64,000 nt of DNA from Lytechinus pictus (taxonomy: Eukaryota): the NCBI RefSeq assembly GCF_037042905.1, contig NC_087245.1, positions 9,984,001-10,048,000 on the forward strand, written 5' to 3'. The position numbers and the translations under genes are program-made. Shown piece by piece: positions 4,777 to 52,010 of this stretch. Below the pieces are notes generated by a model. It ran no database searches and had not been told where the DNA came from. It worked only from the letters and a program-made list of their open reading frames with translations. The number at the start of each line of letters is the position of its first letter. Position 1 is the stretch's first letter.

Positions 4777-4903
4777 ATGGCAACGATGGAAGGCCTTCTG
4801 CCTGGACCATCATCATCATCTTCATCTTCGTCATCTCTAGGAGCTAAGCGCAAGCTACCGGTCGAGTGGGAGCTTCGAGATAGAACAGAGCCAGGAGCAT
4901 TAG
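4777..4903 (+). CDS. Receptor coding exon 1 (A/B domain; exon starts 4690): [42 protein letters not shown]
   Basis: Acceptor tccttgcag at 4689, in-frame upstream TAG at 4735, ACTATGG start context. The TAG|GTAAGT donor is phase 1 and matches the next exon. Confidence 0.75.
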
Positions 4904-24200: not shown

Positions 24201-25895
24201 ATTTCTGATTGCTCATATGGTTGGCTGGTGAAGGAAGATAAGGAGTGATTTAATAAGCACTACTCAAAAAATGGAGACATGATTTTGAGAAGGCTGGCCA
24301 ATTTTAGAGGTTCTCACGATGTCATTGTCATTACTTTTTCTATGAAAGAGCTGTCCAACTACAGATCTGTCAGAAAATGGCCAGTTGTGAATAAATTGTA
24401 GCAATATTTCCTAAAAGTAAACAATGTTTGACAACAACAGATGTCTTTATATATGCAAATATCTTAGGCTGTCACTGTCAGTGTGTATTTTGCTAAACCA
24501 TATGAAAATTCCAGTCTGCACACCTTTTTTAAATATAAAGTTAGCCCAACAACAAATGAATTATGGAATTAATGATTTCTTTATTTATGAATGATAATAT
24601 ATGCCTGATTATTTCTGGTTAGTAAAACAAACCACACAATTAATATCAAACAGTGCCTAATGTTCATGAGCAATAGGAAACATTGGAAAAAATGAATGAT
24701 TAGATTCAAAAGAGTTTTTTTTAGTGACCAATAAAATGAAACTTTGACGATGCATTTTGTTTAATTATCTATTTATTTATTTTTCCTTTCTAGATTTTGA
24801 TAAAGACATGAACATCTTGTGTCAGGTATGTGGAGATAAAGCATCGGGGTTTCACTATGGAGTTCATTCATGCGAAGGATGTAAGGTGAGATCATGAAGT
24901 AATTCTAAGCATTGCCATTTTAATGATTTCAAGAAAAAAGTTAACCCCAAATTGCTTTTTGAATAGGTACTGTAGGTGATGAGTGTCCATGAGCGTTTGA
25001 GATATAATTCTGCAAACAAACCCCCAAAAGGAGAGGGTCAACTTTGTAAGAAACTCAATAACCCATTTTCTTTGTTCCAATGTACATGTAAATGATAGTT
25101 TATGAAAAGGTGATAATCATGCTCATACCCGCTTGGATATGGTTTTCTTTCCCTGGTGGTCTAGTTATATTTTTCTGGTGTTTCTATTAAGATTTATCTT
25201 GCTACCTTAATCTCAGTTATATATATATACCTTGCCCTTTTAGTAATGTATGAGGTGACCATTCTTGTGCTATTACAAAGAAACAAGTTTTATTGTAACA
25301 ACTTTTGAGTTAACAAGTCAGAAGCAAAAATTGGATATGACATCATATTTTGTGCTGATTTTTTTTATGGAATGAAAATTGGGGCATGAAAACAAAATTA
25401 TTACCGATTAACCAGGTTTCTTAGTTTTCATTGTTTACCCAGGAAATAAAAACTGGGTCAACGGCCCACTTTTTAACGCAAGAATGTTTCCTCTCCACGC
25501 TAGCTCTTGGCCCTTCACCCCACCCCCTTGATATAATCTGCCCCGCCCCCCTTGGCGTTGGTGGCGTCCATCCAAGAAGACTATCATTCCATCTGATTGT
25601 GCTATATTAATACTTCATGCACATCCTGCTTGTTATTGTATCATATAAACAGTACAATAGATGATAAGCAACTTCTTATACGAAGATATGTTTGTTATTA
25701 AAGACCATCTATACCTTTGGTAATAATAAGGTGAACTATAACATTTAGCTATTTATCATTCTGTGATCATTCGCAACCTTTCAAAAAGTGACAATTTATC
25801 AGTTTTCATTGTGGATTTTGTGAAAAGTTGAATTTCAAATCAGATTTAGTGCCCTCTCTCTGTACTATTTGTCACTTTTAAAGTAAACTCCCTCA

Positions 25896-25940
<45 letters not shown>

Positions 25941-28900
25941 TAACGCTCTGTTTCAGTTAAAACATTGAGCACTTTCCCTGAACTTGATACATTTCAATTT
26001 AATTTGTATATATATATATATATATGTATTTGCTTATTTATATATTTATTTATTCACGTTTTCTTTAAAAGACAGGGTTGTCCCATTCAAGCCAAATGGC
26101 CTGCTTTACATAAAATATAAGTTGGAAATGAGAACTGTATCTTGAAATTTTTGCCTCAGTTCATAACTATACTTCAGAAGTGGTTCCTAATGTATTCTGT
26201 ATATTTTTTCCTAGATGGTGTTCATTTTCCTATTTAGAGAGTATTATATTCTGAAATTTCCTAAAATAAAAGACCATGATTAGACTTAGAGAATGACGGA
26301 ATTGTTAATAACTATATTTTACTTTACTTGGGGTACACATTTTGTGGATTGTGCTGCTTTGTAAATTCATAGACTGTTAGTGCCTTTGGAGATCTTAAAC
26401 CTGGACATTGCAGCTCAAAGGCTTGGGGCATTTTCCACTTCTTCATATCATTTTATTGTAGCTTTGTTACTGCACCTGTTGTAAATATTAATTGCATCAC
26501 ATTTGATGTATAGCCCTATTCCCCCTTCTCTAATTTATTCAGTGAGTATTAAATGTTGCAAGGCATTGAGTATACACTTACAGTTAAAACCCCAATAAAA
26601 ATGTGATAGAAATGATCACTTGAAAGATTTTTTTTTCATTGCTAGCACATCTCATCCAACACATGTTACTTGTTTGACTCAGTGGGTGCAACCACAGGGG
26701 GGGGGGTGGAGCTATCCCTGCTCCTATGATTTTTCAAGTAGTGAAAAAAGGAGAAGAGGGGGGATATAAAAGAGGGATAAAAGGATGAAAAAAGAGTACA
26801 TTACAAAAAATTAGATGTTTGGGCGTTTAACTCTGTAATACCCATATGATTAAGTGGAGAACAAATATGACATTACCTTGTCATCTTGCTCCCTCCCCCC
26901 ACCCACCCAATCAAAAAGAATCCTTGTATGAATCCCCTGTAACCCATGGCTTGACCAGAAGGGAACTGAGTTTACATCCATGGCTTGACATAGAAATTGT
27001 TCTCATTATCATCCTGAAACTGGTTTACTGGAAACTGGTTCAGGAAACCAGTTTGGAAGATCGCTTTGCTAGCGTTCCCATTTGATCACCAAAAAGTGGT
27101 TTTCAAAAGAACTTCTTGTAAAGCGGTCTTGTTGCTATGGGAATGCTCTCAGTAGAGGGACATGTTTCAAGAGAAATTTGAATCAGCAGCATATACATTC
27201 TACACACAGTGTGTGGAACATGCTCTTAATGTGCGAAGATTGCTTCCTGAAGAATGGTTGTGTCCTTAGCTAAAACCAGTTTAACGAGGCAAAGCGATCT
27301 TGAAATTTGCATCGTTAGGTCGTTTTCCGATTGCTTCCAAGACGGTTTCGAGCGTTCTTAAAACACGTTAAACTAGTTTCTACTAAACTATAGTTCTAGA
27401 AAAATTGTTTTAGGATGGTAATAAGAATGGGGTCATCGGTAATTTAATTGACTTGGCAATAATGAAAATTTATAAATAGTTGTACTTTTCTTTTTTCTCT
27501 ATCTTTATGCGTGAAATTATTATTTTTGTTCCTGCTCAGAAGTATTACCAACTTAAATTATCCAGTAACACCATTTTCTTCTTATTACCCTACCATCACT
27601 TTACTTTAGAAGTGTACTTCTATTACCTTTTATATCACTTGGGCTGTTTCATAAAGCTGCCTGTTACTAAAGATGCAAATGACTTTATGATGAAGGGAAT
27701 ATGTAGTTATGATTTTTATCGAATTCTCAATCATCTAAATTGGCATTAGCTAAAGTTGAAATATGATCGTTGTAGATTAAAATATTGTTGCTAATGGTAA
27801 TATCATGCATTGAATTAATTATGCATTGCGTTATCTGTCAAAAATTTAGAATTAGGGTTATAGGAAATTCAGTTGCACTATTTCATTTTCAACAACACGC
27901 CATGGAAACACTAAAAAATTATATTTTGATAGGGGGCGTCCCTCACAGATCCTTGTAATGGGGGGTCTAAGGAATTGACCATCATTTGTAAAATATTGGG
28001 TCTTGGGAACTTCACTGTATGATCTATTGGGTAGAGTGAAAAAATCTTAATCTATATTATTTCACCCCAGTAACCCTCGCTTTTGTGCTGTATTGTTAGT
28101 ACATATGTGGCTGGTGTGCAACTAGCGTAGGCCAGCTCTGTGGATGCCACCGAGTAACCAGCTAGCCTGATTTAGGTGCTCCCCCACTTGCAAATGGATA
28201 TCTTTCATAAAGGGGTCTTCGGAGCAGGGTTTAGCAGCCTCTGTGAGCAAATCTTAGTATATATAGAGAACAGAAATGGAGGTCTGAAATAGGAGGTCGT
28301 CAAAGTGCCAGGTCCACGTAACTCAACATGCGTGAAACCTATACACCAACATCATAAAATAACCAGTACACAAATGAAAGGATGTGGTACAACTTGCCTA
28401 CAAAATAGGCCTGTATGAAAATGGTCATTTTAAGATGCAAAGAGCAGGCAAAGAGCCTTGGTATATTGCTATTAGCTGAATACAATATTTATTGTAGAAG
28501 AAATCTTCACCTCCCCTTCTTTCCACTCCTGCCACCCTGCTGTTTTGATAATGGTTATCCCAATTCCCTTTTATTGAACAACTAACAAGTATTTTCACAC
28601 ACTGTTTCTACCATTTATTACCATCTATACCACAATTATCAATCTTCACCATACTAATATTAATATGGCCCAAATACAGCGCAGCTACTATAATTGCATA
28701 TGCTCTACTGTGCCTTGATACTTGGTATCATATTATTACCCCGGCTGTAACTGAGCTGCCATATAGGCACTATAGCATTCAAGGAATAAATCCTATTGGG
28801 TAACCATTCACCTCACCTGGGTCGAGTGCAGCACAATATGAGTAAATTTCGAGCTGAAGGAAAAAACGCCATGGCTTGGAATCGAACCCATGTCCCTCTG

Positions 28901-31900
28901 CTTGAAAGTTGAGTGTCGTAACCGCTAGACCATACATATATGTCACCTGTGTGTCACTGTATCTATTTCTTTTTCCCAAATTCATCCTCTTCCGTTCTCA
29001 CTAGAATTGTGTTTTGCTCCCCTTGCCAATACCAACTTCAATTATTTTTCTACCACGCTTGCTACATTCTGCTACCCATCTTGTCCTTTTCTCTACCACC
29101 ACTATTCACTTGCTACCACAAACCTTCCTTAGTTTTGAGCCCAGCTGGCAAGCTGAGCACCACGCCAAGATTAAAGAGCCACGATCAACATACTTGCGTG
29201 ACATACTTGACCCAGGAGAATTAAACCCCTCACATGAGAGAATCAACTACGCAACATGAACGATTGAAAGAGAATAAGAAGTAGAAAGAAAAAAAAATGT
29301 CCATGTGCTGGTTGCATCCATCGCTCGCCACAGATCTCCTCTTTAAAAAAAGTAAGGGAGTAGAAGGAAATAATATCTAGGTTACTATTATCGGAAATGA
29401 TTTGAATGTCAGATCTTTTTGAGAAAATAAAACTGGGATATCTAGGTCATGAACTAGTTCAGCGACAACATGCCATGTTATCTTTTTTTATTCTCTCTCA
29501 TTCAATCTCCCCCCCCCCTTCTCTTGACTCCTCTTGCAAACTGGGGTTGGTAGTCATTGTATGCTTGAGTGCCATTCTTGAATGGACTAAATTGAAAGTG
29601 CTTAATAGCCACAATTTTTGCTCTATTTTTTTCTGTGAGAGGGAATTGAATAATCACGTAATGTTTTGTCCCTGCTCTATTTTTTCAAATTGGTTGTATT
29701 ATCCACTTAGTCATACTTTGCTATTAACCCTCTTATTCTATCTGATAGATGAAAATGAGTTTGGTCATGCGCTTCAGTATATAACATTGCTTTCTTTAAA
29801 GAATCATGCCCCAGCTTTCTCTTTTGTTTCTCTTGGTACATTATTATCCAGAGTATCCTGTCATTTCTGGTGCATTGTGGGGGTTTTGATAGCTTTATTT
29901 GCTGTATATTCTCTTTACTTTGAAATGACATTTAACCTATTTCTTTTGCACATTAACTTTCAATTTTATGTCTAGTGATAATTAAATCATAAAGGATATT
30001 TGTCACTGGAATGACAAAGAGTCGTATGCTGTTATCCTTTTGTTCTTTTATTCAGAATTTGATTGTCAATAGAAAAATATGGAAGAATTTGGTCACATTT
30101 AAAAGGAAAAGGTTGATAGAATTATTAAAATTGGTTTTTTCTACAAGCAGCTTCCCTGTAGTATTTTCCAATTAATATGAAACAATTCTTTTGCTAAATA
30201 ATGATAAAGAACAGGAAATAATCATTATTAATCCAGAATTTTAAATATCCATAGTATTGTTATTTTTTTGGTGGAAATTAGTGTAACATAGATTTCTGAT
30301 TCTGGTACATGAACTTCAGATTGCAAATATGTAGACTTTGGTGTCGATGGATCCATCTTTAGGTTTTGGTGTCAATCATTTTCAGAGTGATGCTCTTGGG
30401 TGCACAGTCTGGTGTATATCTTTTATTTGCGAAGGTGTTAATATCATTCCCAGAATGCAAATTGGTGTAGATCTGGGTGTAGCTAATCATGTCTCTGGAA
30501 TGCAAATGAGTGTAGATTTGAGCAAGCTGGGACGTCATCATGCTTCCCTGGTCATTTAGGTTAATGGTTCTATGAATGTTTGAAATGAGCTCACGTGAAC
30601 TAGTTCATCTGTAGTGGTGGTCGACTCAACAGTGTTACAATAAACCGCAGTAGTGGCTTGATAGATGGATGGGCTGTGGATAAAGGCAATGTGTAAAAGG
30701 AGTGCATCCATTGTCTCACATAAATTTGGAACAGAGATACAAAAGAAGAGACCAACAGAGAAAGATCCGATGTTTAATCTGTTGAAAGTTCAAATAGAAT
30801 GATTGATATACAGTCAATTCAATGAAAGTGTTTGGTATTCGAAACAAATACTGTTCTTTTCTTAGAATGGCAAAGTTTGGCGGCCATTTTTTGTAATGCA
30901 TTTTATTCTGAGGTACCTTCCATCAATTAGCAAAGATATGGAAACCCACAAGAAATTATAGTAATGGTAGATAAGACATAATAATTTGAATTTGAAAAAA
31001 AAGGAACAGGTGTAATAGCATGAACATTAGGGATAAGAAATACCATACAAAAGTTTTAAATATATAACCATAATAATAATAATAATAATAATGATGATGA
31101 TGATAATGATAATAATGATAATAATAATAATAATGATAATAATGATAATGATAATGATAATAATAATGATAATAATAATAATCAATAATAATAATAATAA
31201 TGATGATGATAATAATAATAGGCATTTATATAGCGCCATCTATCTAGAAATATTCTATTCCGAGGCACGTTGTAATTATTATTATTACCCATACATATAC
31301 ATGTAGGCCTACTAATTACAATCTAGGTTTTTGTGCAGTTAAGTTTTGCTTTTTTTTATTTGGTTTTATTGACCCTGGGTAACCCCATCATTGGACTAAG
31401 CACTTTTTTCTTGGGGATTCAGAAGATTTAGGTCTAGGCCTAAATGAGATGGGAGATGCTATTTCATCTTTTTTTGCTAAGTGCAGGAACTCTAGATTCT
31501 CAATTTTCATCTACTGGATAAAATCAGTTAAATATGGCTTTAATTGTAGTCCATAGTCTATATATGAATTATGTACAGTATGAAGAAATTTTGACAACAA
31601 ACTTTAAACCCAGTATAGAATGACTGTCTCATGATTGGGAGGTTGTTGGTTTTTACCCCCCCCCCCTCCCCTGCCAAGTCAGACCAAAAAACATTAAAGA
31701 AATTATACTTTCAGCCTTGCTTGACATATTAGAAATGGGAAGGGATATTTGTCAGCTAACAGCTGAAGTGACTACCCTGGGCAAATTAGAGTTATTATTG
31801 ATATTATTATTATTATTATTTGTTATTACTCAATGGACCAGATTTAATTGGATGGATTCTTGTTCTCTTTTGATGAAATTTCGGAAACAAGAACTAAACA

Positions 31901-37900: not shown

Positions 37901-40900
37901 TTGGACAAGAATTTCTTTAAAATAACGTTGTCCTAAATGTACAAGGCTGAAGCAATAATTTCTACCCCCTTTTGAAATCTACCTTGGGTATCAGTGTGGG
38001 TAAAGATAATATCTTTTATTGATTAAGGGTCTATTTGGGGATTATTCCTTTCGAAGCAAAATTGTTTGACCCTTCTCAGTGAAAATGTACAAGAATATTA
38101 AAAAATAACATTTAGAAAACATTGAAAATTATTTTTGTGAACAAGTATTTTAGATCAGCATGAGACCTGCTTATAATTTTTCAATTAAAGTATGGAGTAT
38201 TTCATGGTGTTTTGTCAGATAACTAATGTTAACCTCATTTTAGTGATATGATTTGGGTAATTAATCATGATTTACTGTCGTAATGGGCCTGTCTTCTTAA
38301 ACCAGTTCTATTTTGGCTGAATTAGCTGCGTAATCTCAGGGTGCAGAAGTTTCAAAGGAAATAGAATTTTACGAGAGAAGTGTAAGTAGAACAGCTCTTA
38401 TATTGTGAAATGTTTTTGGCTCTCCCCCCAGCAGATTAGCATTTGCTTAAGCTCATAAAAGTTTGATATAAACATAACCCCTGTGACTGCATCTCTGACA
38501 CCGTTCTCATTACGCTTTGTAAAACTGGTTTACTGGAAACCGGCTCAGGAAACAAGTTAGGAAGATCGCTTTGATCCCACTTGATCACATGAAAGTGGTT
38601 TACAAAATCACTTCACGTAAAGCGATCTTGTTGCTATGGAAACGCTCTCAGTGGGGTGACACGTTTCGCGCGAAATTTGAAACCGCAGCGTAGGCATTCT
38701 ACACCTGTCGTGTGGAGAAGCGCGCTCAACATGTGCGAAGATCTCTCCACGAAGAACAGTTGTGTCCTCACTTGCTCTAAAACCAGTTTATCGAGGCGAA
38801 GCGATCTTGAAAACTACATCGCGAGGTGGTTTTCCGAACTGCTTTGGAAGATCGCTTCCAAGACCGCTTCGACTGATCTCACTACGCTTTAAACTAGTGT
38901 CCTCTAAACTAGTTTTAGGAACGTAGTGAGAATGGTGTCTTACTCTGTATGTTCCCAAACTCTTTCTTCCTTCTAACAAGAAATGTACCATATAACCTTC
39001 ATGTTCTAATGGACAGAAATATGTGGACCTACAAATAAAAATGGAATACCTTTGAAAATTCATCACCAGTATAGGATAAATTTTCTGTTTCTTCAACTCA
39101 TTTTAATTTAATTTTTGTTTAACCATTATGTATTCAATGAAAGTTTGGCTTGCTTCATGTATAATTGTAATTAAAAGTATCCTTTGCAATCTCATCCATA
39201 AACCCTGCCCTTATGCACAAATGGCAATTCCTCCATTATTTTACATGATTACTTTCCATAGAACTGCTCATTGAGTTTACCTCCAGACCCTGTCTTCATG
39301 GAGGAAAGTGTGTGGAACAGATGTGTAGAAAATTGTGATAACAACATCTTACCAAAATGATATAGTAATTATCATCATTATGCTGACAAGTGACAAATGT
39401 TATGGTCAATAACCACTTCCTCAACAATCCTCTTCTCCTTTGCTTGTTTTTCATCTCCATTGGGTTTCTTCCACAGAACTGTATAGCTCAACCTAACAGA
39501 CCTTGCCCCTATAGAGGAAAGTGTCTGATGCAAAGAATTAATACAATGGTGGTAATTTACCATCTAAACCAAATGATAACCAACATTGCTGTAATGGTCA
39601 ATAATCTACCTCTTACATCTCCATTACTTTTTTTTCTGCATAGGGTTTCTTCCGCAGAACTGTACAACACAATCTTACCTACAGACCTTGCCCTAATGGA
39701 GGAAAATGTGTGATTCAACGTAAGAATAGAAACCAATGTCAGTCTTGTAGACTAAGGAAGTGCATTCTCATGGGCATGTCCAAAAATGGTACGTAAAATA
39801 TGTAACTGTTATGCATTTGACATTCTGAATTGTAGTTATGACTTTGTCAATAGTACTTTAAAATATATTTCTTTTCAATTCATGAACATGTAGAGTCGTA
39901 TTTCACTTTACTTCCGGTTCAAGCCTTTATTCGATATAGCCTTTGAACATATATGTTTTACTGATTTCTTTTAACAAGTTTACTGAAACTTGGTCTGCAC
40001 TCCCATTTGAATAGCATTTGTGTATATATGCACTGATAATGGGAATTCTATTAGCTACCAATGCTGTTGGTGTTATCTCCCAAAGGTATTTTTAATCATC
40101 TTAATTTTGGAGATTAAATCTTTTGTTTTTAGACACCCAGTTACAGTAAAATATATATATGTTTTTTATAATACTTTTTATCTTTTGTAAATTGTTCTGT
40201 GTCATGCGGTTTAAAAATATCTTGTTTTCTTCCAGCTGTTCGTTTTGGAAGGATGTCTAAACGAGAAAAGATGAAACTGACTCAGGTGATGAAGGAGATT
40301 GCAAACAAGAGTGATGATATTCCTATCAGGGATGAAAAACCTCTTGACCTGAGCCGACCTCCAAGTCAAGAAGCTATGGTTGCTAGTGACGATGGGCCCC
40401 TAGCAAGCAATGATTCTCAACAGTGTGCAATATCAGACATTAAAGGCAGCTTGGAGGATATGAAAGATGTGGGGAGGGAGTCCAGTAATAGTAATGACAG
40501 AGTACAGTGTAAACCTGACTGGTCATCTTCAAAGACTGATGGAGCTGAACTGAAACACAATGGTAGATGGGGTGAGTGCAATGGGAGAAATGGCTCTAGT
40601 GTTGGGAAGGCTGTTCAAGACATTCACATTGATGAGAAAAAGACAAGCATTCAGGACTTGCTTCTTACCCAGTATTGTAGTAGTCAAATGAATGGTTATA
40701 TTCCAAACAATGGACTAAATGGCTTGCAGAGTGGTGTCCAACGAAGCATCAAGGTTGAGAGAGACATTCAGAATGATTGCCATGGTTACTCAGGACACCA
40801 CCCTCATCTTAATGAAAGAATATCATCAGTTATCAAGAAGGAAGATCAAACTCCTACTTATCATGACTTTGATAAAGGCATCCATCATCACATGGCTTCA

Positions 40901-43900
40901 GACAAGAAACAATATCTCCTACCCCGACGCAAACAGATTGCACGCTTACATCATGATGAAGAAGTCAGAAGGAACCATCAGAATTTCAGCAACAGTTACC
41001 ACGGCAATCCATATTCCAATCATCACTTTCATCAAATGCCTGAGAAGTTACAGAATATGAGTCTCGGGAGTATCAAATCCCCACCCATGAATGGACTGTA
41101 TGAGAATGGTGTTCAACACAGCTTTGAAACCAGGTTAAACAGCACCAAGTCACACTTAGAACTGAAGAATGGTTACAATCATTCAAAGTTACAACACTCA
41201 CTAGTCAATCCACACCAGAATGGAAGGATACCCAACGGCTGCACTCCAGATAACACAAGACTGTCCTACCACCCTGAGACCAATCACAGAAATAGATTAA
41301 GAGCTCCTAGAGTACTTGGTGGAGGTCATAATCCTCATATGCTTCATGTCCTTCAAGGAATGGGTCTGGTGGATTCCTTGAGCAAGGCATATTGTACAGA
41401 GATTGATGCTCAGTTCTCAAGTCTAGAGGAAATACTTAGAGTGGCAATCAAGAAGCACCTACGAAGTGAACAACACACTGCAGCTGATAACAAAGAGGTA
41501 AGATGAATAAAACAAATTATGCATTGTCCTGAGTGACTGTGACTCTCGCCTTCCAATAAAAGATTAAGAAGTTCAGGGGAGGGTTTAATCACAAGACGTG
41601 TCAGGTGTTTTATTGGACAAGTCCTGTTTTATCCGACAGTTACCGTAGAAACATTGCTCTCAACCAGTAAAAATCCAGGAAAATTGTCAGATCTGACAAC
41701 TTGTCAGACAAAATATTGATGAAACCTCCCCAGTTAAGCAAGTGCATGTAAGCTATCCATGTTTTCAATTCGCTGTGCCCTGGTGAAGTGAATGGTAACT
41801 TGCTGTGGTTATATTATCTACACATAAAGCCAAGGTGATATTATGTTAATCCTTTGGAGCTCACAGAGACACAAGTAATGTATGATGGTGGTCCCCAAGT
41901 CTGCGCACCTAACAATTTGAGTTAAGATTTAACATAATTTTTTTTTTCAAAATCTTTCAGATAATAATGTTTCTTAGATTATTATGAGTAAGTGTACCAA
42001 ATATCTCATAAAAATTTGAAAGAAATATAGGATTTTCTTGGAAAAAACCTCGGGCACTCATTTTCAGATTGAAAAAAAAATTGTACCCCATGTCTGCGCA
42101 CCAATTCACTATGCACACGATTTGAGGATTTTGATAAGAAAGGCTGCATTTCGAGGCCGTCACATGGTATTCCCAAAATTTATTATTTATCCACCATTTT
42201 GAGTCGGATTCTTTAATGAATATCTTTCTGTGTATTGCATGTGTAAAGTTTGTGTTCGTTGCGTATCTTCTTTTACTAAAATCGCGCAGATACGTGTGTG
42301 CGCAGACAAGGGGGACTGTGCAGACTTGGGGGAACTTGCCATATATCATGTGATTGTAAGCTAGTGAGAAGCTCAATGTTTCATGTGTATGTTTCTCTGG
42401 TGTTGAATAAGCATGCACCTACCTTTTTTTAAGCAAAAAATATCTTGTGCATACTGTTTTAGATTTACAGAAAGATTCTTGTTTCTGCTTGGCACTTTTC
42501 ATAATCAATTATCACTTTTTTACTCTTTTAACTCATTCGTTGAATATTATCCTTCTAGATAGGGCCTAATTTCAAGTTTTATTATCAAGCATTTTGTACC
42601 ACAATGTTTCAAAGATATACTATTAAACATGTAGTGAAATTATGAAAGAAATAATCATTTGTCATTCAATTTCAACCTAATTGCTTTTTAGATGTTTGAT
42701 TATCCCTTTATTCACAACATATCTTCCATTTTTTACAATACTGGCAAGGATTTATGCAGGCATGTATCTGATTTTCCGGGTGATTGAACCTGTAAATATA
42801 AAACATTCAACTCATACAATTCGTATCACATAATAAGTTGTTGTAACTACATATAATATACAGTATAAACTCGTGATTGATTATTTCATCCTGATTTTTT
42901 AATGCCAAATTTTAAACCATGTATTAATTTCTATTTCTACTCCACCAGACTATTGGTTCCAACGGTGTATGCGGTATACCCATGGAGGTAACGGTTGGAG
43001 ATAAAGAAGAGGCTTTCTGTGATCGATTTGCTCCTATCATTAGTCGTATCGTCAGCTTTGCAAAAGCTATAGAAGGCTTTGAAGAGATCCCACATGAAGA
43101 CCAGGTATATGAAGTTGCAATTGATGAGTTTCATGTCATCGTTAAGGGCTAAATTCAGGGGATTTTTAGAATAATCCATGGACCAGTAGAGATTATTAGA
43201 AGTTTTAAGCTGGGAGGAAGATTTGTACAATGATCCTGATGATTCCCGGACTGTCAGGAATTAATGGCCTTAATATGTTCACTAAGATGTAATTTGTATA
43301 CATGTGCTGCTGCCCCCTCCCTTAACCCCCCAGAATATGGATTTGTATGCAATCTAAAACATTCATCCTATGTTTCTCTAATCTTCAAGATTTTGTATAT
43401 GAATGTATATACAATGTACTTCAAATCCCCTTTCTACCATTGCTTTATATTGATATCATGTTTTATTCATAATTTAGCTAACATTATTAAAAGCCGGCTG
43501 TTTTGAAGTGCTTCTCCTACAACTCAGTCAAATCCTTGACCCAGAGAGTGAGGCCATCGTGTTCTCTAATGGAGAGAAGTTTCACAGAGGTCTCCTCCAA
43601 AAATCAGGTGGGTATATCTTATGTATTAAAACAAGTTCAAGGACAATTCCCCATACTCTGTATTAAACAATTATCTAAAATGTAAAATGAAATTATATGT
43701 TATCCTTGGAATCCTTTTAGAAATCATTGTTGCCGCCATTATCAAAAGGTAAACTCCAGTTGTATTAACAATAAACAATATTTCAAGAAAAAGTTTTTTA
43801 ATGTAAGTTTTTACCATAATGGATCAATGTCTATTAAGTAATTATGTAGTTTACATCAACCAAACATAGCCAGATAATGACATTGGTGTATGAAATTGCA

Positions 43901-45141
43901 CAAAAGTCACATATAGGCCTCTGTATTATTACTAGGAAAGAGACCCATCTACTGGCAGAATCCTGATTATTTCGCACTGAGCAATTAGTACTGAGCAATT
44001 ACCCTTATTTTACAAGAATCATTTGACTCATTCTTTATACAGTGACATTTGCTCTGCTCTTAATATCTCAGAGGGCATAGGGTTAGAGTTTGGATTGTAG
44101 TAGAGTTTGTTATTCAGAATAATGTTAAGATAAGGATAAGGGTTTATTCAGTTTTTGAAGTTGGGTTTTATATTTTACATAAAGTGCAAATTTTTCGTTG
44201 GCGCAATTGTTGCCGTAGCAAATGTCATAAAACCATTTATACATACAAACACTTAGGTGATGATTTTACTAGATTTTTTAAATTTTTGTGAATTTTAACT
44301 CAGCTGGAATATGTATTCAAGTATTTTTTTCCCCATCTTCTACTTTTATCGTTTGCAGATGTTGGTGATCTAGTTGTTGCATTGTCCAAGATTGCTTCAC
44401 AACTAAATCAACTAAACTTATCTTTACCAGAGAGGGCGCTATTACAAGCATCTGTATTAGTAGCATCAGGTGATTTGTTTATTACAACAGTTTGATATGG
44501 ATCTTCAGTATAGGATTTTTTTATTCATGATTGGATACTTCTAATGAATTCCAATAAAATGTTTTAAGAGGGTGTGGTTGTGTTAAAGATGTTATGATTC
44601 CTGTTTGCCTAACAAACTATGCACAAGGTTGATATGACTTGTATTTTATGTCTTCTACTGTTGCAATTTGATAGCTCTTTTTCTTACTGGTTCAAACTAA
44701 AAAAATAAATTGCAAGGTAAATTCAATGCCCCCACCCCACCCCTACAAGATGTCTATTAAAATATACATATGAAATTCATTCTCTTCATAGTTACATGAA
44801 TTGCTTGTAAATATTTAAAAAATGCATTTTTACTACTGACTACATATGAATAAATCTCTCTTTTCAAATAATGCAAAATTACAGACATTCCAAAGATTCT
44901 GAATCATATATAACTCCTTGGTTTTTTAATTGTTTATTTTCCTGTAGATCGGAAGGGTATCCAGAATGTTGATGAGGTACGTAGCCTCCAGACACATCTT
45001 CTAGGTGTCCTAGAGAAGTTCCTCTATGCTACACATGCTCCTGATGCACTTGTCTTTCACAAGTGTCTTCAAGTAGTCCTGGACCTAAGGGTTCTCAACC
45101 ACAAGTACTCAGAAAAGCTCCTGGCCCATCAAAAGGATTAG
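4777..45141 (+). CDS. Nuclear hormone receptor, NR1 subfamily, Rev-erb/E75 (NR1D)-like; spliced CDS of 8 exons, 738 aa
   Basis: C4 zinc fingers [85 protein letters not shown] signature [30 protein letters not shown]-terminus [19 protein letters not shown] with no AF-2 helix. All introns are GT-AG with matching phases (1,0,1,0,0,1,1) and the total of 2217 nt is divisible by 3. Confidence 0.9.
5224..5612. mobile_element. Kolobok-like non-autonomous DNA element
   Basis: TTAA|AGGTGAATGAAAC ... GTTTCATTCTTCT|TTAA, with internal motifs shared with the elements at 34005, 50236 and 56240. Confidence 0.6.
7260..7432. mobile_element. Palindromic MITE with CACTG termini (EnSpm/CMC-like)
   Basis: TA|CACTGTAAAAA...TTTTTACAGTG|TA; almost the whole element is self-complementary. 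Confidence 0.85.
9861..10047. mobile_element. MITE with ~55-bp TIRs
   Basis: cggtcacatttgctct...cgagtcgaaaacag pairs with ctgttttcgactcg...agagcaaatgtgaccg. Confidence 0.85.
14541..15027. mobile_element. Non-autonomous DNA transposon (~490 bp)
   Basis: TIRs aggtggtttcaaactgcctcga and tcgaggcggtctgaaaccacct; internal direct repeat ttgctttcacactgccaaaa occurs twice. Confidence 0.8.
15953..16109. mobile_element. MITE (CWG-flanked, Harbinger-like)
   Basis: ctgggccctgtaacacaaaggttagc pairs with gctaacgtttatgttacagggcccag. Confidence 0.75.
17283..17357. promoter_or_regulatory. Cluster of three RORE/RevRE monomer sites
   Basis: AATATAGGTCA (17283), AAAATAGGTCA (17305) and TAATTGGGTCA (minus strand, 17347-17357) all match WAWNTRGGTCA. 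Confidence 0.55.
22852..23114. mobile_element. hAT-like MITE
   Basis: TIRs cactggtggatccagg and cctggatccgcccctg; 8-bp TSD tacaacta/tataacta. Confidence 0.75.
23177..23437. mobile_element. Related GC-tract MITE
   Basis: caggtgtggatc...gatcaacgcctg flanked by tctga on both sides; shares gaaatgtccttcatttt with its neighbour. Confidence 0.6.
24794..24885 (+). CDS. Receptor coding exon 2: first zinc finger and P-box ([31 protein letters not shown])
   Basis: Canonical NR zinc finger 1, ttttcctttctag acceptor, AAG|GTGAG donor. Confidence 0.97.
26998..27432. mobile_element. DNA transposon family copy 1 (paralog of 38497-38939)
   Basis: Shares aaactggtttactggaaac, gaagatcgctttg, ttgttgctatgg and other blocks with the 38.5-kb copy. 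Confidence 0.8.
28730..28932 (-). mobile_element. tRNA-derived SINE
   Basis: The minus strand has A box TGGTCTAGCGG and B box GGTTCGATTCC, followed by a tgtgctgcactcgacccaggtga core. A degraded + strand relative lies near 21370-21490. Confidence 0.75.
31071..31290 (-). repeat. (AAT/GAT)n microsatellite forming the tail of a truncated SINE/LINE 3' end
   Basis: The repeat abuts gcatttatatagcgcc; the same tail motif occurs at ~18960 and ~58320. Confidence 0.75.
31633..32975. repeat. Tandem duplication of two ~670-bp units (31633-32298 and 32299-32975)
   Basis: Long near-identical blocks, e.g. gaaagtcattaataacaaaaactgacactagctactgaaactgaaagg at ~31943 and ~32608. Confidence 0.95.
34005..35408. 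mobile_element. Kolobok-like element with a nested insertion
   Basis: aggggaagttca...tgaacttcccct|TTAA; a homologous segment lies in the opposite orientation at ~57480-58200. Confidence 0.75.
34288..35164. mobile_element. Nested TIR element (~880 bp, CpG-rich core)
   Basis: tattgccggacac pairs with gtgtccggtaata; internal inverted gattccggacgcgc. Confidence 0.65.
35961..36176. mobile_element. Palindromic MITE fragment
   Basis: Near-perfect ~60-bp inverted repeat spanning 36044-36176. Confidence 0.75.
38497..38939. mobile_element. DNA transposon family copy 2
   Basis: TIRs gacaccgttctcattacg and cgtagtgagaatggtgtc. Confidence 0.85.
38960..39643 (+). pseudogene. Array of decayed partial copies of receptor exon 3 with flanking intron
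   Basis: The copy at 39463 reads [25 protein letters not shown] and the copy at ~39253 reads [20 protein letters not shown]. Weaker copies lie at ~39188 (NLIHKPCPY) and ~38979 ([15 protein letters not shown]). Confidence 0.8.
39644..39788 (+). CDS. Receptor coding exon 3: second zinc finger and D-box
   Basis: Encodes [48 protein letters not shown], with ctgcatag acceptor and G|GTACGT donor. Confidence 0.97.
40236..41497 (+). CDS. Receptor coding exon 4: CTE ([12 protein letters not shown]), long hinge and LBD helix 1
   Basis: Lies within ORF 40199-41506, with ttttcttccag acceptor and GAG|GTAAGA donor. Confidence 0.93.
41577..41730. mobile_element. CAG-flanked MITE (second copy at ~53811-53977)
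   Basis: Both copies share ttgtcagatctgacaac and tcctgttttatccgaca, in opposite orientations. Confidence 0.75.
41883..42341. mobile_element. TA-flanked TG...CA TIR element
   Basis: ccccaagtctgcgcac pairs with gtgcagacttgggg; tctgcgca motifs repeat internally. Confidence 0.65.
42949..43104 (+). CDS. Receptor coding exon 5: LBD helices 3-4
   Basis: Encodes [52 protein letters not shown]; phase 0/0. Confidence 0.93.
43478..43607 (+). CDS. Receptor coding exon 6: LBD helix 5 and beta region
   Basis: Encodes [43 protein letters not shown], with aatttag acceptor and G|GTGGGT donor. Confidence 0.93.
44359..44469 (+). CDS. Receptor coding exon 7: LBD helices 7-8
   Basis: Encodes [37 protein letters not shown], with gtttgcag acceptor; phase 1/1. 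Confidence 0.92.
44948..45141 (+). CDS. Receptor coding exon 8: LBD helices 9-11 and stop
   Basis: Encodes [64 protein letters not shown], with cctgtag acceptor. Confidence 0.93.
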
Positions 45142-51782: not shown

Positions 51783-52010
51783 GTGATGATGATGATTATG
51801 ATGATGATATGATGATGATGGTGATGATGATGATGACGATGACGACGGCGATGATGGATGGTGGTGGTGGTGGTGATGATTATGATGATGATGGTGATGA
51901 TGATGCTGATGATGATGATGGTGATGATGATGATGGTGATAATGGTGATGGTGCTTCTGCTGATGAAAATGGTAATGAAGATGACTATGATTATGAATAT
52001 GATGATATAA
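51783..52010. repeat. (GAT/GGT)n microsatellite
   Basis: Degenerate trinucleotide tract; a similar tract lies at ~917-1046. Confidence 0.9.

Follow-up and report, generated by a model that had tools for sequence, protein, structure and literature searches.

A ladder of partial exon copies upstream of the second zinc-finger exon in a putative NR1D-like receptor gene

Intron 2 of a nuclear receptor gene in the window (the whole 64,000-nt stretch of DNA analysed) carries a ladder of partial copies, two clear and two probable, immediately upstream of exon 3, which encodes the second zinc finger. With a probability of about 0.75, these copies are non-coding relics, now decaying, of a single duplication that unequal crossover later expanded, a reading favoured by the fact that they end at the same point in the exon, all without its last 57 nt.

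The host gene (4777-45141, + strand) has eight coding exons (4777-4903, 24794-24885, 39644-39788, 40236-41497, 42949-43104, 43478-43607, 44359-44469 and 44948-45141) forming a single open frame of 738 aa. Exon 2 (24794-24885, + strand; Pfam zf-C4, E = 1.8e-10) encodes the first zinc finger and its donor is spliced to 39644, the start of functional exon 3 (39644-39788, + strand; GFFRR...MGMSKN; Pfam zf-C4, E = 6.8e-16), the template of the copies. The product is identical to L. pictus protein P0009 at 623/623 compared residues and to L. variegatus P0008 at 727/737, and the protein encoded by exon 3 is 100% identical in Lytechinus pictus and Strongylocentrotus purpuratus. NCBI names for the relatives are NR1D-like or E75, the best match to the ligand domain among solved structures is NR1D2, and the DNA-binding domain is a C4 double zinc finger with the P-box CEGCKG and an AVRFGR extension. 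By resemblance, rather than from a tree, the host would be a Rev-erb/E75-like (NR1D-like) nuclear receptor; it has zf-C4 and an NR1D-like ligand domain in common with NR1D, Rev-erb and E75, and its coding sequence is ordinary. Introns 1 and 2 are long (~19.9 and ~14.8 kb; 4903-39644) when compared with introns 3-7 (370-1450 nt), and long trinucleotide microsatellites lie at 916-1047 (TGA), 31070-31220 (ATA) and 51784-52006 (TGA). A blastn search for an adjacent copy of any of the gene's other 7 exons found none.

The live end of intron 2 (39549-39643, + strand), with its pyrimidine tract and acceptor AG (39642-39643), is the intron part of the repeated unit and aligns to 39335-39462 with a score of 46, reached by 0/2000 shuffles. 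Going upstream, all on the + strand, copy 1 (39333-39548; clear) comprises an intron part (39333-39462) and an exon-like part (39463-39548), copy 2 (39231-39332; clear) a short intron remnant and an exon-like part (~39246-39335), copy 3 (~39104-39230; probable) an exon-like core (~39185-39225) whose 3′ end is lost, and copy 4 (~38941-39050; probable) a pyrimidine tract and an exon-like part (~38962-39045) from which the acceptor has been removed. Each copy extends from the intron end to, at most, the first 88-94 of exon 3's 145 nt. The last 57 nt of exon 3, when searched for, matched none of the copies (scores reached by 767-1980 of 2000 shuffles), and the last two cysteines (zinc ligands) and the exon donor are absent from all, while copies 1 and 2 retain both cysteines flanking the D-box. 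Anchor spacings along the ladder are 185, 213, 85 and ~204 nt, the short one suggesting that copies 3 and 2 were probably brought together by a deletion of ~120 nt. The 703-nt ladder (38941-39643) contains zero CpG, compared with five in the 447-nt intron 3, and the exon CpG at 39653-39654 is altered in copies 1 and 2.

Much of this agrees with the preliminary description, which had been made from the letters of the sequence. The acceptor CATAG/GGTTTC (CATAG at 39639) and its counterpart CATTG/GGTTTC (CATTG at 39458) are 181 nt apart, as claimed, and the nearest copy does carry a mutated acceptor (AG to TG), one stop codon and a frameshift (a 4-nt deletion), with the 15-residue peptide attributed to it found at 39498. 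Peptides quoted for the three older copies were located at 39254/39255, 39188 and 38978/38979. The original AG is gone in all three copies where it can be aligned (TG in copy 1; in copies 2 and 4, either altered or deleted); in copy 3 its position cannot be placed by alignment. Duplication of flanking intron motifs, also proposed, is significant for the nearest copy (0/2000 shuffles) and not for the others (matched by 434, 1810 and 63 of 2000 shuffles).

Homology of the first two copies is strong. Aligned with the unit at 39549-39731, copy 1 is identical at 143/176 columns (39335-39546; blastn E = 2.5e-16) and copy 2 at 75/100 (39231-39331; E = 2e-6), and with the exon alone as query blastn gives E = 8e-13 and 1e-6, respectively. 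The first 88 nt of the exon align to copies 1-4 with scores of 92, 57, 33 and 38, which were matched by 0, 0, 0 and 1 of 2000 dinucleotide shuffles each; no window tile reached the score of any copy (1162-2332 tiles; best tile 30). A 2-nt insertion at 39264 in X9 and X10, two runs from a second organism (organism B), fills a gap predicted from the exon alignment, giving independent support for copy 2. An assembly artefact was rejected, the copies being 19-29% diverged and present in X9 and X10 also.

It is distinctly unlikely that only copies 1 and 2 are genuine, with copies 3 and 4 a chance resemblance in an AT-rich intron. The preliminary description had itself allowed that the two most distal copies might fail against shuffled sequence; they passed (0/2000 and 1/2000, as above), with a significance that varies with the scoring scheme. 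No window tile (0/1476) reached the score of either copy, and under five schemes the numbers of tiles doing so, out of 2096, were 0, 0, 5, 1 and 0 for copy 3 and 0, 0, 11, 0 and 0 for copy 4. The 5 and 11 tiles under a single scheme speak for chance, as do whole-unit alignments, whose scores were reached by 69/2000 (copy 3) and 3/2000 (copy 4) shuffles, a search with a profile of the exon unit plus copies 1-2, in which copy 3 had E = 7.4 and copy 4 was missed, and tblastn, by which the two were likewise missed or non-significant (copy 4 was found by neither tblastn nor the profile search). In addition, no variant in X9/X10 restores an exon base within copies 3 and 4. Against this, when both strands of the whole window were scanned, the four copy sites were the four best non-self matches, copies 3 and 4 being third and fourth; every tile was exceeded in 3/5 schemes by copy 3 and in 4/5 by copy 4, and the two are spaced about one unit apart.

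The duplicated unit would be ~185-215 nt long, with one boundary 95-130 nt upstream of the AG and the other 88-94 nt inside the exon. This extent is observed; the event, from which we infer the copies to descend as non-coding relics, would be a local tandem duplication straddling the splice acceptor. The downstream unit, retaining the exon tail and donor, would have remained the working exon, while the upstream unit, with an acceptor and half an exon and no proper donor, would have had its AG subsequently lost or ignored. Use of a freshly duplicated acceptor is computed to lead to a stop within 47-84 codons, and selection against decoy acceptors is plausible; for the loss of AG from all three alignable copies, a model of independent neutral decay gives p = 0.08. 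The two-unit array was then presumably enlarged by unequal crossover that copied the same junction, and its members would have decayed by substitutions, indels and the single ~120-nt internal deletion between copies 3 and 2. A dispersed element with terminal inverted repeats (TIR element) now lies at the far end of the array, and the copies would yield no protein.

Repeated unequal crossover, as originally proposed, finds its support mainly in homologous junctions. The junction between copy 1 and the exon unit aligns with that between copies 2 and 1, and the junction between copies 4 and 3 aligns weakly; a repeated junction between units suggests homology-driven expansion of one original duplication. 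The gradient in divergence that had been put forward for the same purpose gives no significant support. After correction, copies 1-4 lie at distances of 0.22, 0.34, 0.37 and 0.37 from the exon. Divergence rises in one step (19% vs 28-29%), without significance (Fisher tests: copy 1 vs copy 2, p = 0.21; copy 1 vs copies 2-4 pooled, p = 0.085). No two copies are as near to each other as either is to the exon, which is expected when the exon is constrained and gives no order of events. Copies 1 and 2 have the same non-exon base at four columns, of which one is the exon base in X9/X10 and one is unshared there; the remaining two shared derived changes, both non-synonymous and one at a CpG, set no order of expansion, a point counted against the relic account. 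If all change is placed on the copies, copy 1 would be ~8 times as old as the split that separates organism B from organism A, the source of runs X1 and X3, and the other copies ~13-14 times as old. With that split put at 2-4 million years ago, the copies would be roughly 17-55 million years old.

Comparison with a related species, suggested at the outset, was provided by X9 and X10, which belong to an organism whose exon 4 changes give three L. variegatus protein residues. Both carry the whole ladder, which, judged from these contigs, is therefore older than the split of organisms A and B. The ladder aligns almost throughout, with 4-7% difference; in X9, 35/670 positions differ (5.2%; small overlaps counted twice). 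Exon 3 differs at 2/145 positions in X9/X10, both synonymous (p = 0.046 vs the ladder), and 5-7 of 81 synonymous sites, a small yardstick, differ (6-9%; p = 0.61-0.20 vs the ladder). At least 19 substitutions fall in 348 nt of exon-like sequence and at least 9 in 355 nt of spacer (16 differences unlisted); among the changes listed, the exon-like parts are thus not spared relative to the spacer, which supports the relic reading. Indels number at least 12 in ~700 nt (5 more are unlisted), and one stretch, near 39365-39394, has been replaced; frame-breaking indels occur in the exon-like parts of copies 1, 2 and 3 in X9/X10. One X9 allele is missing 17 nt from 39478; in the other, as in X10, a 7-nt deletion starts at 39501, within the codons for RPCPY.

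A wider scan of metagenomes, aimed at orthologous introns, returned 32 loci with no close orthologue among them (identity at most 73%), and many are near-duplicates, making them a weak control. No clear upstream copy was found in these 32 loci: 31 scored within 100 shuffles, and for the other, L027, the score was 32 and the shuffle maximum 31, compared with 92 and 32 for the window. In one locus (L001:1182-1325) a second-finger exon, 73% identical and with the same acceptor phase, has no upstream copies.

Intron 3 (39789-40235; GC 29%) behaves differently in organism B, with only ~80/447 nt aligning, most of its length failing to do so at 80%, and 15-17% difference in the best piece. The contrast with the ladder (5% vs at least 15-17%, p = 0.002) counts against pure neutrality and would indicate either that intron 3 is fast-evolving or that the ladder is mildly constrained. 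A ladder of the same origin might now be kept for a regulatory job, its duplicated branch points, pyrimidine tracts and exon enhancers tuning splicing of exon 3 or its decoy acceptors leading to nonsense-mediated decay or, in another form, acting as an intronic enhancer or internal promoter. This we consider unlikely. The low divergence relative to intron 3 is consistent with it, as are AGs in pyrimidine-rich context at 38980, 39261, 39286, 39476 and 39514, each leading to an early stop, and two L. pictus database models without the first finger (see below). However, ladder divergence equals that of synonymous sites within error, the indels and replaced stretch just described fall in ~700 nt, and X10 and one of the X9 alleles have AAG in place of CAG at the best cryptic acceptor. 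The main transcript is also normal at this point, as X1 and X3 contigs have the ordinary exon 2 junction.

These spliced contigs of organism A come from two studies, one contig per run, and are identical to the window; their upstream overhang, at 39642, is the end of exon 2, joined straight to 39644, intron 3 is skipped and both splice junctions of exon 3 are seen. No contig from X1 or X3 covers the ladder, but assembly loses rare splice forms, so this absence is no evidence against low-level use. All 24 runs listed are represented by contigs and none is recorded as RNA; four of them were compared with 38941-40500. Six candidate acceptor positions were tried as partners for exon 2, and each would bring in a stop within 4-78 codons.

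The preliminary description raised the idea that the copies are relics of alternative exons with variant D-boxes, formerly functional and since dead. We regard this as extremely improbable, even though copies 1 and 2 keep both D-box-flanking cysteines, a GT in fair donor context directly follows copy 1 (39552) and there is a slight synonymous excess (26/84 changes vs 21.5% expected; p = 0.027 without transition bias). No copy could replace exon 3, because the last two zinc ligands and the exon donor, with the 3′ 57 nt, are missing from every one. Third positions are not spared, with 20, 33 and 31 substitutions vs the exon at the three codon positions, and the synonymous excess loses significance with ordinary transition bias (p = 0.11-0.19) and is expected also from drift of the live exon. 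The open reading frame at 39390-39713, noted earlier for its D-box-like peptide, does contain that peptide, yet it was rejected as a chance frame: it overlaps exon 3 out of frame, and a Pfam search of it and two other long frames gave no match. The 17-nt and 7-nt deletions mean that the peptide is broken in both X9 alleles.

The TIR element bounding the far side of the ladder (38497-38939, ~443 nt, no strand assigned; MITE-like) has termini matching at 16/18 positions by eye. A second copy at 26999-27402 (75% over 428 columns) is also in intron 2 and contains a short related array, the third, at 27016-27048. When copy 4 is extended across the excised element its score rises from 39 to 47, reached by 53/1000 shuffled flanks, which is suggestive of insertion of the element into copy 4. 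L. pictus model P0001 starts MVSYS/GFFRR, its first five codons lying at 38932-38946, across the end of the TIR element, and being followed by GT; P0009 starts later still, at MGMSKN. Both models lack zinc finger 1, which the window encodes in frame, and both may be prediction errors, weakening them as support for a regulatory role.

In a more specific version, the dead acceptor array was co-opted to control the receptor, its cryptic AGs directing some transcripts to decay or an internal start lying nearby; this is very unlikely. Insect E75B lacks a zinc finger, and in the internal-start form the ladder and adjoining TIR element would similarly yield a receptor without the first one. Co-option, if true, would explain the low divergence of the ladder vs intron 3 as well as the two finger-1-less models, and a ladder that is constrained or used in splicing would be a regulatory element built from the exon's own debris. 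E75 isoforms are named in PMC5019025, the available part of which makes no statement on their fingers.

As decaying relics, the copies would provide a tidy example of duplication across a splice acceptor followed by expansion, and a presence/absence marker for urchin phylogeny. They also call for caution in annotation, as a chance open reading frame here carries a D-box-like peptide. Searches for literature on this locus or on duplicated nuclear-receptor D-box exons found none, most subscription papers lying outside their scope.

Tandem mutually exclusive exons of the Dscam1 type, as outlined in the accessible portion of PMC9013439 (Ivanov and Pervouchine 2022), resemble the ladder in having adjacent upstream homologous copies and duplicated intron flanks. 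The ladder copies differ in being incomplete, without splice sites and with stops and frameshifts: none has the span and frame of a whole exon, its own acceptor and donor or coding-type conservation. Exon homology, loss of coding capacity and splice signals, and splicing out of the ladder from the main transcript are instead the features of a degenerate intronic (pseudo)exon duplicate. A further parallel is intron gain via partial duplication, in tandem, of an exon segment, described in the part of PMC2891723 that was available, where exon sequence is likewise partially duplicated, the extra copy becomes intronic and its retention gives premature stops. Here, the existing acceptor was included and intron 2 merely lengthened, with no new intron position: the junction of exon 2 with 39644 is retained, and comparison with other urchins shows no insertion in the protein.

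Duplicates of this general kind are already known and common. According to the sections of PMC12343006 (Exonize) at hand, ~4-7% of vertebrate genes have full-exon duplications, and genes with partial, inter-boundary or intronic events are significantly more numerous, and those of PMC9013439 report 4,027 unannotated intronic targets in human whose conservation and expression are, on average, slightly above those of controls, suggesting that some intronic copies are functional. Neither source, in these sections, gives a count for multi-copy ladders that straddle an acceptor. The present ladder, most likely a harmless relic, is like such intronic, partial and inter-boundary events in having same-gene exon homology in an intron and arising by local duplication, and differs from them in having a unit that spans the acceptor, breaks off mid-exon and recurs in register up to four times.
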